From Eledone cirrhosa (lineage: Eukaryota): a DNA stretch of 64,000 bases. This document shows positions 482-41,363 of the stretch, in pieces. The position numbers and the translations under genes were made by a program. The stretch's first letter is position 1. Every line of letters begins with the position of its first letter. Under the pieces are notes generated by a model. The model had not been told where the DNA came from, did not search any database, and was given only the letters and a program-made list of their open reading frames with translations. The stretch lies in the NCBI GenBank assembly GCA_964016885.1, contig OZ024742.1:52204001-52268000 (forward strand), read 5' to 3'.

Positions 482-620
482 TAACGAAGGAAATGTGGTA
501 CGGAGCCAGGTGGACCATAACGCAACAAAGTACTCAATACTTAGGGTAGTAGAGTGGGTAATAGGAACGAGTAGGACCCCGACGGCTTGAGCTCAGCCGT
601 CGGGGTCCTACTCGTTCCTA
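482..620 (-). mobile_element. Short fold-back insertion, family B copy 1 (3' end of an HHR-bearing PLE-like element), in (TA)n
   Basis: Hairpin TAGGAACGAGTAGGACCCCGACGGC..TGAGCTCA..GCCGTCGGGGTCCTACTCGTTCCTA plus a one-sided ~80-bp tail; same sequence at 6895, 12287, 24091 and 40180; (TA)n on both sides. Confidence 0.85.
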
Positions 621-1706
621 TATATATATATATACATATATATATATATATATATATATATATATATATATATATATATATATATATATATATATATATA
701 TATATATATATATACAGATAGAGGGGGAGATAGAGACAGAAACGTATACATATGTAGAAAAGTTCAAAATTATGAAAATACATAATGTACTTCTATACAT
801 GTTTGAGCAAGTTTGGGGGTGTGTTGTTTCGTATACAAGCGTCGACTTGTAAACATTTGTGTGATATATGTGTCTCCGCAGACATATATACATGCATGTG
901 TGTTAGTATCTACATCCACACATGTATGTTAGTATCTACATCCAGACACTTACGTATGCATATATACATGTACATTGTATATAAATCTCTGTTACGATGT
1001 CAAGTATTTAATAGAACATTGAAAGGAGAGATTGTGTGACATTCATATAGTCCTTGAAATAATAAGTGAAGAAACCTTACTTTAACTAGGAATGAAAACT
1101 GAGATATATACATAGTTTATATTTCAAACATATTAAATTTATGATCAGTTCATATATAGTTCCATAGTATCATCTGTCGCATACCTTGAAATACAAGACA
1201 ATACACATTGAATTTTTCTTTTACTTGGGCTTCTCTACATATTTTCATGAAAATTGTTATGGTGAGCTTTCCTTATGTTGTCTCGTCTTCATGAGATTAA
1301 ACGGACTTCTAGCTTTGCGGCTGTGTCTCAACACTTTACAGTCGAATTTCGTAAAAGTTATCGCAATTTCTAATCTGAGAGTGTCTTCCCTTCCCTTGCA
1401 CATCTCGCCAATGGAATTCCCCTTGTATTATTGCATTCCTGACCACTACAATTTGCAAATATTCCAAAGCTACGCCAATTGTTTTCTGCTCTCTCTCTCT
1501 CTCAATGTAGTATGTCATCAATATATATAAATATATATATATACGTATATATATATATATATATATATATATATATATATGTAGGAGGTGAGTTTTATTG
1601 TAGTACAATAAAGCAATGCAGATATCGGATAAGAAGCACTCTACAGTTTGTGGGACTGGAGTATGCATAATATAAGATCAAAAGATGGTTAAAGGAGTTC
1701 AATATA

Positions 1707-1773
1707 TTTTATTATGCGCATTTCAAAAACAAACATCATCAAACAATAATATTTGTGTTTTCATCAGATAAAA
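1707..1773 (-). ncRNA. Type I hammerhead ribozyme (mirror of 4782-4848)
   Basis: Reverse complement reads TTTTAT-CTGATGA-[stem II]-GAAA-TGCGCA-TA-ATAAAA. Confidence 0.85.
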
Positions 1774-3011
1774 CAGGAGAACATGATATGAAGGCTAAAA
1801 AAACACTTGTTGATAGTGCAGTTTTAAATCAACATATGAAAAGTGGTTTTAGATTGATGTGTGATATTGGGAAAAATATTTTATTTAGAGAGGGGGGGAG
1901 AGAAAAGGATGAAAAGGGAAGGAGATGAGAGGGAGAGATGGGTGATAGAGAGAAAGAGATAGTTTTTATAACAGAGAGGAGATATATTTTATATAGAGGG
2001 GTTGAAAGCCGTTGGAAGATACTGTATAAATTAAAAATTTTTGAAAATTAACGAAGGGAGGATATGTGCGAGGAAAAAATATATTATATTTAGGGAGGGG
2101 TGGGGGTGGAAAGGATGAAAAAAAGGGGAGGAGATGAGAGTGAAGGTGGAAAGGGAGAGATGGGTGATAGAGAGAAAGAGATAGTTTTTATAACTGAGAA
2201 AAAGATATAATGTTTTAATATAGAGAGGTTGGGAACCGTTGGAAGATAATGTATAAATTAAAGGAATTTGAAAATTAACGAAGGGAAATTATGTATGGAG
2301 ATAGAGAGAAAAAAATAACGAAGGGAGATTATGTATGGAGATAGAGAGAAAAAAAAATAATAATTGTGGGTGAATATTCAAAAGGAGAAATGTAGGAATC
2401 TTAAAATTAGCAAAGAGAAAATGTTTATGTATAGGATTTGAGAAAAATAATGTGAAGTTAAAGTTTTTATATTGAATTCATATGTATTAATAATGAGTTC
2501 GTTGATGGGGAGAAAAAAATAATAATAAATTAAGGATGAAATTGAGATTAAAAAGATTTATGATAGAGAGAAAAAAAAATAATAATGATTGCGGATGAAT
2601 ACTCAAAATGTCAAAAACAAATGTTATTGTTTTACGAAGAGATATAATGAGGGTGATGAGTAAACGGGTATTATAGAGTGTATAATGCCCTTTAAAGTAA
2701 GGTAGATGGGTATATTTTAAAGAATATATGAGTATATATTAAAAAAAAATATATAATAATAAATTAAGGATGAAATTGAGATTAAAAAGATTTATGATAG
2801 AGGGAAAAAAAATAATAATGATTGCGGATGAATATTCAAAATGTTAAAAACAAATGTTATTGTTTTACGAGAAGATAGGATGAGGTAAATGAATAAACGA
2901 GTACTATAGAGTGTATAATGCCCTTTAAAGTAAGGTAGATGGGTATATTTTAAAGAGGTGTATGTATATGTGCCTTTGAGAAAAGATTCTAAATTGATAA
3001 AGAATTGAATA

Positions 3012-37960: not shown

Positions 37961-38467
37961 TGATCCTTGGATTGTCTTATAATACATTGAAAATGTGTTG
38001 TTGTTTTTTTAACCACATCTTATAACGTTAATTGTTGCTGACATTAATTAGGAAGTTGAAATCAATTAAAATGTTCAATAGAACCAAAATAACTTTATAG
38101 CCAATATGTATGGTTTTGCGTTTCAGGATCCTGTTGTGTAATAATTTTCATGGTAGATTCAATCAGGGCTAGATAGTTAAACAATTCGCTTGTTGATCAT
38201 GAGGTTTTAGGTTTGATCCCGCTTGGTTTGACCTTCAATAAGCATCTTATATTAAAACGTCGTTCGGCCCAAGCCCTGTGGGTAAAGCTGTGTACATTTG
38301 TATTAATCAAATTGCTAATCAATTATAGAAAAACACGTTAGAGTTAATGACAGCTCGCTTTTGGAGACCACGTCTAAAAAGAGACAAATGCCGTAGTTTG
38401 TCTATGATAGTAATTTGGTGTGTAAGGGGAACACTTTAGAGTACTTAACAGGTTTTAAAATTTAAGA

Positions 38468-38835
38468 TAATGATTTCTACTTTAGGCAAAGGGACAGCAG
38501 ATTTGGGCAAGGGAAAATGGATTAAATCAACTGCAGAACTTAACAGGTAGCTTTTTTGTTGATCCCTGATGTATGAAAGTCAAATTTATCATCGGCGGTA
38601 GTTGAACTCAAAATGTAAACCGCCTGAGCAAATACAGCCGCGCATTTGTCCGACGATCTACTGATACTTCCAAACACCGTCTAGTGCAAAGACGGTGTTT
38701 GGAAGTATCAGTAGATCGTCGGACAAATGCGCGGCTGTATTTGCTCAGGCGGTTTACATTTTGAGTTCAACTACCGCCGATGATAAATTTGACTTTCATA
38801 CATCAGGGACCAACAAAAAAGCTACCTGTTAAGTT
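38468..38835. repeat. Decayed SINE (-) with a near-perfect 146-bp inverted duplication (38537-38682 / 38690-38835)
   Basis: One mismatch seen between arms; 7-nt spacer AGTGCAA. Confidence 0.9.
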
Positions 38836-39883
38836 TAGGGATATATATCATATCAAACATGTATATGATAGACAATATCATGTGTTAAAAATAATTCTAA
38901 TTAGATAAACTGGACTGCTGTAAATGAATGTTTTTCTATATACAAAGTAGTCAGTTATACGAGTTTCTAATTTTATTGAACTCTTATCATTATCTCACTA
39001 TCTTTCTCTACATTAGCAAGGTGACATTGTAAACATAGATGTCAAATCTTTAATTATATCAGGCAATATCGATTTCTATAATTAAGTTCAATTTAAGCAC
39101 GCAGTATTGCCTGAAATCTACAGGTTTATTCTTTAATATATTATAGCACCAAAACACTAACGCTGATACCGGGTCCGTAGAGTACATGTATAACTATGTG
39201 TGTATAGGTGTATATACGTATGTATATGTATGTGTATGTGTGGGTGTATATATATATATAAATATATATATATATATCAATCTCTCTCCCCCATCTCCTA
39301 CCCTCTCTCCATCTTTCTCTACTTCTCTCTCTCTCTATCTCTCTCTCTCTCTATCTCTATCTCTCTCCATCTGTATATATATATATATATATATATATAT
39401 ATATATATATATATATATATATATATATATGTATATATTGATAATTGTGTGAGAGTATGTGTGCGCACGTGTGTGTGTTCAACTTATTTTGCAGATCATT
39501 TGATCTGATACCGTGTGTTAAAACGGAAATAATTACATCTAACATAGAGTCAACTAAGACTTCTAAGAAGAGACTAATATAGCCTATTCACGTTTCGTTA
39601 TATCACACATATGTGACCTGCGCATTGACACAATTGAAAGCTTCTCCAATAATAACGGAAATGTGTATTACAGATTTAATGTATTCTTAAGTAGTGAAAT
39701 ATATTTCCTCCACCACGTAATTATGAATGTATGTTTGTACATATGTATATATATATATATATGTGTGTGTGTGTGTGTGTGTGTGTGTGTGTGTGTGTGT
39801 GTGTGTGTGTGTGTGTGTGTGTGTGTGTGTGTGTGTGTGTGTGTTTGAAAAGGGAGAATGGTTCTATACAAAAAAGAGGTTGT

Positions 39884-41363
39884 AGAGAAAAAGTGGTATT
39901 GGAAACAGCATGAAAATTATATTTAAAGGATCTGTCTTTCTTTTTTTCGTCAAAGTGACATTATTGAAAAAATGAAAGGAACTATTTAAAAAAAAAAAGA
40001 CTTTTATAATGTATATAACATATGTAAAATATAACCGGTTTCGGTGTATCAGTGTAATCCATCGTATCGTACATTGAAAATCATAATTTAAAAGAATTAA
40101 AAAGAATTAAAAATTAAAGATTTAAAATTAAGTGTTGAATATGTATATATATATATATATATATATATATATATATATATAACGGATGAAATATGGTAAG
40201 GAACCAGGTGGACTATAACGCACCAAAGTACTCAATACTTAGGGTAGTAGAGTGGGTAATAGGAACGAGTAGGATCCCGACGGCTGAGCTCAAGCCGTTT
40301 CGACGGCTAATTCTGGACAAAATTAGCCGTCGAAACGGCTTGAGCTCAGCCGTCGGGGTCCTACTCGTTCCTATATATATATATATGCAATATACCTAAA
40401 AAAGACTTTTCTTTTTTTCTTTCTTTCTACCCAAAATATTTCTCTGACTAGGTTTTGATCCCATCCCAAAAAGATAAACACACCCACACGTATATATGTA
40501 TGTGTATATACCTACACACACTCACACGCACGCACATGCATACACACGCGCACGCACACACATATGTGTATTTATATATACACAATTACACATACACATT
40601 CAAACTCTCTAACTCCATATTCCAAAGATAGAATTTCTCTTACAACCCTACTTTTGCCAATCCCATTTACCACTCTCACCCATAGAATTTGTCTCTAGCT
40701 TACATTACCCCAATCTGAACTCTTGACTTGTCCTTTAACACAATTGAGATGCACACACACACACACACACACACACATATATATATATATATATATATAT
40801 ATATATATATATATATATATAGAGAGAGAGAGAGAGAGAGAGAGAGAGAGAGAGAGAGAGAGAGTGAGAGAGAGGGGTAGAGAGAGTGAGAGAAAATTCC
40901 CTGTCCCTAAAATAGTTTTGTTCTGTGAAAAGACACAACTGCCACCACTACTACTACTACTACTACTACTACTACTACTACTACTACTACTACTACTACT
41001 ACTACTACTACTACTACTACTAGAATACCTCTATATATAAGATTCCATTTTAGACCCAGTCTTCTTCTCAACAAGAAAGATGAACAGACCTGCTTCAACA
41101 CTTAATCTCACATATTTAATTTTGAATTCTTTTTAATTCCTTTTAATTGTAATATTCAACATTTGATAAGATGGATTACACTGATTACATCGGAACCAGT
41201 TATATTTTATATATTTCATATACATTATAAAACTCTTTTTCTTTTTTGAAAACTAGTTCCTCTCATTTTTTCAATAATGTCACTTTGACGAATCAAAGAA
41301 GGAAACAAGACAAACAGATCCTTTAAATATACTTTTCATGCTATTTCCAATTCCACTTTCTCT
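39884..41363. mobile_element. Older inverted-repeat element (arms ~39884-40140 / ~41094-41363) with nested family B copy and microsatellites
   Basis: AAAGTGACATTATTGAAAAAATGA / TCATTTTTTCAATAATGTCACTTT and further reverse-complement matches. Confidence 0.7.
40180..40373 (-). mobile_element. Family B fold-back, copy 5
   Basis: Tail at left, hairpin turning at CGGCTAATT.CTGGACAA.AATTAGCCG; (TA)n flanks. Confidence 0.85.

Follow-up and report, generated by a model that had tools for sequence, protein, structure and literature searches.

The question raised by the locus analysed here is what determines the point at which the two arms of a fold-back insertion of a Penelope-like element are joined. 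The locus, referred to below as the window, is a stretch of 64,000 nucleotides (nt) from Eledone cirrhosa (assembly GCA_964016885.1, contig OZ024742.1, positions 52,204,001 to 52,268,000, forward strand). It contains five head-to-head copies of one repeat, designated Family B, which begin at window positions 482, 6895, 12287, 24091 and 40180; each is flanked by (TA)n runs, and both 3' ends of each copy face outward. These copies are real, and the fold-back architecture and the class of element have already been published. An earlier note on this DNA had proposed that both target strands are primed at two fixed positions of the element RNA and that the two complementary DNAs (cDNAs) are joined through the self-complementarity of a hammerhead ribozyme in the repeat. 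Our analysis supports the first part of that proposal, including its reading as inverted Penelope-like insertion, and not the second. The junction is likely to be set by the place where the RNA template begins. With a probability of roughly 75%, the fold-backs are made by twin priming on a capped sense transcript, run-off of both cDNAs at the cap and subsequent end joining.

Positions are numbered from the predicted hammerhead cut, the C of GUC being -1 and the next base +1 (window 12894/12895 in the third copy), and sense denotes the strand that carries the ribozyme and the open reading frame (ORF). Genome-wide figures are exact-match pattern counts in the E. cirrhosa genome. The junction sample was anchored on the far tail end, so that sampling was independent of the junction, and consisted of the first 100 tail-end places listed on contig C1, 97 of which were kept after a duplicate filter. 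The three places dropped as sequence duplicates (L080, L087 and L101) are real loci, all with hot-spot junctions, and two of the 97 retained sites are internal tails of tandem copies. An inverted partner was found for 69 of the 97 tail arms. The automated junction calls lie too far 5' at L052, L074 and L086 (-47, more likely -41) and at L095 (an A run) and fall short at L114 (about -52); the first window copy and L036 were misplaced and were read by hand.

The outer ends of the fold-backs are fixed. In each of the five window copies one arm ends TTCC|TA, with +17 as the last element-specific base and the TAT at +18..+20 common to element and target, and the second arm ends CGT|TA at +99, about 79 nt beyond the short end. 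The same two ends hold across the genome: +20 is the terminus of 62 of 69 inverted partner arms, and TATA follows 90 of the 97 tail ends. The inner boundary is sharp. Among the 97 tail arms, 54 start at -47..-33, none at -100..-48, five further upstream (read-through) and 38 downstream, and 53 of the 69 short arms also start at -47..-33. The binomial p values are 2e-25 for tail arms and 1e-22 for short arms, for an interval that was chosen after the data had been seen. Such a one-sided boundary is what the end of a template would produce. In the genome there are 22,621 tail ends, and both arms end in this hot spot, which lies in loop II of the ribozyme, in 10,021 elements. Read-through arms make up about 15% (4,512 arms with -104..-81 against 29,832 with -37..-14). 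A minority of copies turn at stem III/loop III, truncate early or read through. The 69 joints comprise 29 with microhomology, 14 blunt and 26 with filler; the scars consist of 0-8 nt trimmed, 1-6 nt of microhomology, or filler. An assembly artefact was ruled out, as the joints are present in raw reads: in reads of two other individuals, 9 of the 12 opposite-strand joints listed start at -45..-35. At L062:2916 and 2857, the ends of restriction-site-associated DNA (RAD) reads coincide with AATT; they look like restriction sites and were not taken as biology.

The base at the hot spot, A-41, belongs to a sequence like an initiator and follows a TATA-like motif by 29 nt. Of the 43 complete copies, 29 have this motif as it stands in the third window copy, and the others have variants of it. 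In the third window copy, the TATA-like motif is at 12825..12832 (plus strand), starting 29 nt before A-41 and overlapping stem II/loop II, and the initiator-like site is at 12852..12858 (plus strand), with A12854 as A-41, the putative capped start and junction hot spot. Many fold-back arms carry an extra base beyond A-41. When the two non-genomic options were compared, counted by eye in the sense reading, this base was G in 95 and A in 5 of the 100 rows listed (2,443 rows in all); on the cDNA strand, it is C in 95 and T in 5, after the complement of A-41. Read-through copies have T or C at -42, never G, in 100 of 100 rows listed. The extra G is present on both arms in 11 of the 88 elements listed, likewise counted by eye, and the two Gs are separated by 0 nt in two elements, by 1 nt in six, and by 2, 6 or 8 nt in the others. 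Since an untemplated G beyond A-41 is far more frequent than A and is absent from the 100 read-through rows, it is the signature expected from copying of an RNA cap. The copied mRNA cap leaves such an extra G in full-length L1 insertions (PMC11702581). We infer that the extra G is a copied cap and that A-41 would be a capped start of polymerase II, seen here by its footprint in DNA.

Several other features were noted at this position. Long T runs stand directly before A-41 at the L098, L007 and L095 junctions (A runs on the cDNA end), which suggests untemplated A tailing at a run-off end. Within the single L112 insertion, the sequence starts at -38 (about -40), continues into the ORF and then starts anew at -40, and L169-L173 have similar restarts. 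Tandem units of 257 nt at L169/L170 extend from the hot spot as far as the ORF start and then return to it; they are retrozyme-like and are without the 5' ribozyme half. The sequence at -40 resembles a splice acceptor, but this reading was rejected because no common upstream exon is joined there.

An independent control for the stop-at-promoter pattern is provided by a second Penelope-like family. Family A occupies window positions 16770-20610 and 7737-7883 in a two-ended head-to-head form with inverted repeats. It has a broken ORF for reverse transcriptase (RT) and endonuclease at about 17780-19120, 29% alike to the Family B protein over 70 amino acids (aa), a U3:A8 hammerhead motif at 20510-20544, a TATAAAA at 20439 and a putative start at A20469. 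Family A arms, 21 in number, were found by chance in loci collected for Family B. Among the 16 that do not read through, 11 start no more than 4 nt from an A that lies 30 nt after TATAAAA, upstream of the Family A ribozyme, and two arms carry an extra G.

The two arms appear to be primed separately. Of the 69 arm pairs, six share no sequence between their arms. In 17 pairs, four of them overcalled by degenerate matching, it is the short arm that extends beyond the tail arm on the 5' side. A short arm of this kind cannot be a copy of the tail cDNA, which argues for two independent priming events. Both RNA priming sites, +20 and +99, carry UAU, which is able to pair with a (TA)n primer. The arms of one element agree at 168 of 173 subfamily-diagnostic sites, compared with 36-53% for random pairs, and this fits two copies made from a single RNA, or from two RNAs that share a source locus. 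At L067 the arms are of two haplotypes, a single case which gene conversion could also explain.

The series of steps would be as follows. A sense transcript would start at A-41 inside loop II, and the element protein would nick both strands of a (TA)n target. One cDNA would then be primed from each nicked strand, at RNA +20 and +99, and both would run off the capped RNA 5' end at A-41. Lastly, the two free ends would be joined by template jump or microhomology-mediated end joining, with trimming or filler. With its start inside the ribozyme, such a transcript would have a 5' repeat that lacks the catalytic 5' half and could not cleave itself in cis; only the 3' repeat could. Read-through arms could arise by a jump across the -41..-1 repeat, by copying of 3' repeats that had not been cleaved, or from transcripts that themselves read through.

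Certain observations weigh against twin priming on a capped transcript. First, the base before A-41 in 53 local arms that do not read through is G in 12, T in 25, C in 13 and A in 3. Secondly, many arms end at G-40 or fall a few bases short of the site, and a fair share continue to -42..-46; such off-site stops may reflect trimming, an untemplated A tail resembling the TTT of the genome, or a second start site at A-45. Third, an untemplated C marks a template end and is no proof of a cap, and the TATA-like motif differs from one subfamily to another and is under the additional constraint of stem II. In addition, the close agreement between the arms of an element also fits snap-back copying. 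Lastly, in Family A the copied template includes an intact ribozyme, which shows that initiation within this motif is not required in general.

The first alternative is self-priming, much as has been proposed for the Penelopes of rotifers: the +99-primed cDNA reaches the RNA 5' end, folds back and is copied, and the endonuclease cuts the hairpin at +20 to create the second end. Junction palindromes are interpreted in this way in PMC3846280, the two commonest extra-base products can be drawn as snap-backs with 3-4 nt loops primed by the extra C, and the arms are nearly always of the same subfamily. However, self-priming cannot give the non-overlapping pairs or the pairs with the longer short arm, and it hardly gives an extra base on both arms with 0-1 nt between them, which was seen in 8 of the 88 elements listed. 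It may account for part of the symmetric copies and is unlikely as the explanation of the whole. More doubtful still is an uncapped template end or an RT stop at the hot spot (a processed end, a bound protein or a weak loop II hairpin), with the extra C as a terminal-transferase habit of the enzyme. A weak AU-rich hairpin is indeed predicted at -57..-37, and the stop positions are spread over about 12 nt, but the enzyme has by then traversed stronger helices, the hairpin is not the same in all subfamilies, and the extra base is usually single. Moreover, Family A has the same stop-at-promoter pattern with a canonical TATA box and no shared sequence.

The weakest alternative, which we regard as very improbable and which is refuted as the main route, is joining or template switching directed by ribozyme stems II and III: the first window copy is such a junction and about 270 elements turn at stem III or the loop III palindrome, but no hammerhead helix pairing forms the joint in any of the 69 sampled inverted junctions, a stem II switch has no match genome-wide although about 4,500 arms span that helix, and any inverted join needs a short inverted repeat, so that even the minority cases need no folded ribozyme. 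The stem III/loop III figure (405 rows, converted at 67 elements per 100 rows by eye) covers two exact junction forms only, with slightly longer anchors, and is a lower bound. When mapped onto the ribozyme, the junctions are non-random, as the earlier note had expected, but their peak is in loop II rather than on a helix, and the helix mechanism holds for a few per cent of copies.

The five window copies have five distinct junctions, as had been noticed. The first (482..620) consists of a tail arm in reverse orientation and a short arm, and it does turn in stem III: its -20/-7 junction is a 6-nt microhomology at 582-587, with -20..-15 paired with -7..-2, the rare helix type. In the second (6895..7062), a reverse short arm ending at -39 is joined to a tail arm starting at -13 by a 2-nt microhomology at 6951-6952; the switch from loop II into stem III proposed for it involves no helix pairing. 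Both arms of the third (12287..12993) pass the hot spot into the 3' untranslated region (UTR) and are identical over 259 bp. Its junction lies further upstream, as previously described, at -242 on the tail arm, with a 1-nt microhomology at 12653. The fourth (24091..24276), of a diverged subfamily, has a short arm ending at -41 (24152) and a tail arm starting at -35, and the fifth (40180..40373) has a reverse tail arm ending at -40 (40318), 2 nt of filler and a short arm starting at -34 (40321). Both had been assigned to stem II. By fold prediction the true stem II is -77..-67 paired with -34..-24, and these two copies never reach its 5' strand, so neither turns on stem II. Their arms stop in loop II just 5' of the 3' strand of stem II, outside the helix, and the apparent stem is the inverted repeat itself. 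Thus, one of five copies, and not four, turns on a ribozyme helix, and at least one arm ends at the -41 hot spot in three of five.

Among the window copies, the third alone has the whole hammerhead motif. This motif, type I and complete, spans 12800..12912 (plus strand) of the tail arm and has its mirror on the minus strand of the short arm. It has a core at 12811-12817 with U3:A8, a long loop II, GAAA at 12872-12875, a stem III with a palindromic loop and a predicted cut after C12894. The tail follows at 12913..12993 (plus strand), the stretch between the +20 and +99 priming sites, which continues into the ORF in autonomous copies. Core and three helices are those of a type I hammerhead, with a three-way junction as the predicted fold (z -0.11), and the helix pairs are kept in 40-43 of 43 complete copies, among which no double-sided compensatory change was found. 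An Rfam scan gave no hammerhead match, only low-complexity microRNA hits. The short end of the fold-backs coincides with the end of the extended stem I in the fold prediction. Core position 3:8 is U3:A8 in 34 of 43 complete copies, a Penelope-like hammerhead variant described in PMC4209133, and a mismatched C3:A8 in 9 of 43. Subfamilies with C3:A8 (L002, L151-L153, L187 and L191) have still multiplied; thus, hammerhead cleavage may be dispensable. Several arms begin exactly at +1 (L037, L135, L185, L193 and L195), where a G run also offers microhomology, and the enrichment of such arms, about two- to threefold, is confounded. They come perhaps from ribozyme-cut RNA, a weak hint of the self-cleavage predicted at GUC.

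By its motifs, Family B is the terminal repeat of a Hydra-clade Penelope-like element, arranged head to head. An intact ORF of 719 aa was found at one locus outside the window (L122:179-2338). It starts 190 nt after the cut site, with the tail directly upstream and, downstream, a 3' UTR that ends in the same Family B repeat. Genome-wide, 334 copies run from the tail into the ORF, and tandem units are spaced about 3,542 bp. As in endonuclease-containing (EN+) Penelope-like elements, a single ORF with RT and GIY-YIG endonuclease is linked to the repeat, pseudo-long terminal repeats (pLTRs) arise from complete or partial tandems, and there is an inverted 5' copy with a tail on one end. The RT and C-terminal GIY-YIG motifs were read from the sequence and are conserved in 56 homologues. 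In total, 2,054 of 8,000 scored candidates are homologues at E 1e-20 or better, and the top homologue carries PF01541; Pfam and PDB sequence searches with the 719-aa protein itself gave no hits. Amplification of a miniature inverted-repeat transposable element (MITE) or other non-autonomous unit was rejected, as individual copies have different junctions and identical junctions recur across subfamilies.

RWR, DKT, CxCX5C, CxxC and CxH are present in the protein, CCHH is absent, and the flanks are (TA)n. The Hydra clade is defined in PMC8557442 by RWK, DKT, CxCX5C, no CCHH, CxxC and CxH around conserved E and N, and a (TA)n target. Family B is like it in the single ORF, C-terminal GIY-YIG, RW(K/R), DKT, CxCX5C linker, lack of CCHH, CxxC and CxH near the end, hammerhead motif and (TA)n target, and a Neptune label was set aside because this definition fits the motifs. 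It differs in its unit of about 3.5 kb, against "generally <3 kb" there, and in its abundance of tail ends in this genome and its U3:A8 core (PMC8557442); the placement is by motifs. The remaining repeats of the window are of several kinds. A near-perfect (99%) palindrome of 3.2 kb with internal repeats lies outside Family B at 1670-4885. Another repeat family, head to head and in tandem between (TA)n runs, at 4936-6226, 6604-6838 and 23682-23734, may be a further Penelope-like family. Fold-backs of other families, several with (TA)n flanks, are at 14756-14872, 15642-16637, 32346-32839 and 38537-38835. What appears, by its motifs, to be a cluster of non-LTR retrotransposon ORFs occupies 43682-58255 (minus strand) and 59851-64000 (plus strand), with several RT ORFs of up to 1,141 aa that have a C-terminal zinc-knuckle or nuclease-like region, and an endonuclease-RT element at the window end.

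The proposed reaction resembles several known systems. In LTR retrotransposons, synthesis of minus-strand strong-stop DNA is primed by a transfer RNA close to the 5' terminus of an RNA with redundant ends, and it runs off at the cap; in Family B the primer would be nicked target DNA, and most products integrate as dead-end fold-backs. In L1 twin priming, two target strands prime two cDNAs, which are joined to give an inversion; priming occurs at the poly(A) tail and a variable internal site, and the segments mostly do not overlap. In contrast, Family B uses two fixed sites near the putative cap, and the same 60 nt are copied twice. L1 and Family B share the joining of two cDNAs as an inversion and the extra G, found for L1 at full-length 5' ends (PMC11702581). 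The protein of Poseidon, a Penelope-like element of the anole Anolis carolinensis, extends both target strands in vitro from two internal RNA sites (PMC11167929). Family B is like it in the two tail-defining internal initiation sites, in the cutting and extension of both strands and in a template copied through a hammerhead site left uncleaved. The Poseidon ORF begins within the ribozyme, unlike that of Family B, and that study dealt with neither the inverted junction nor the 5' end of the RNA (PMC11167929).

Penelope of Drosophila virilis and the elements of Adineta vaga have an inverted pLTR with a tail, junction palindromes and TATA and initiator-like motifs (PMC3846280, PMC2377424), and the Drosophila start site was mapped by rapid amplification of cDNA 5' ends (5'-RACE). 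Family B is like them in its head-to-head repeats, one-arm tail, junction palindromes and TATA and initiator-like pLTR motifs. It differs in its tail of 79 nt, theirs being 30-40, and in the template: self-priming on an antisense template was proposed there, whereas a capped sense template would be copied twice here. Hammerheads in pLTRs, close opposite-strand pairs and a circular-template model are found in PMC4209133. In a plant retrozyme transcription starts upstream of the ribozyme and the transcript is cleaved. No report of cap-derived bases or run-off cDNAs at Penelope inversion junctions was found in the library searched, which leaves out most subscription papers, older Penelope reviews among them, so that priority is uncertain.

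The origin of the Penelope-like inverted repeats and the type of template (sense or antisense, capped, cleaved or circular) are called open in PMC3846280, PMC4209133, PMC8557442 and PMC11167929. More than 10,000 natural reaction products now read the template 5' end at base resolution, and they favour a capped sense RNA primed twice. Exact testable positions are gained: the start at -41, priming at +20 and +99, and the cut at -1/+1. The intact autonomous ORF is a basis for an in vitro system, which the Hydra clade lacks in the papers found. It is also possible, though we hold it only tentatively and think it improbable as it stands, that the pseudo-LTR is a true LTR with an R region from the cap (-41) to the ribozyme cut (-1). 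If so, a promoter inside the ribozyme would spare the 5' copy from self-cutting, while the 3' copy could cut. Target-primed strong-stop cDNAs would jump via R to the ribozyme-made 3' end to give seamless Penelope-like tandems, and failed jumps would fuse head to head, giving the 10,000 fold-backs.

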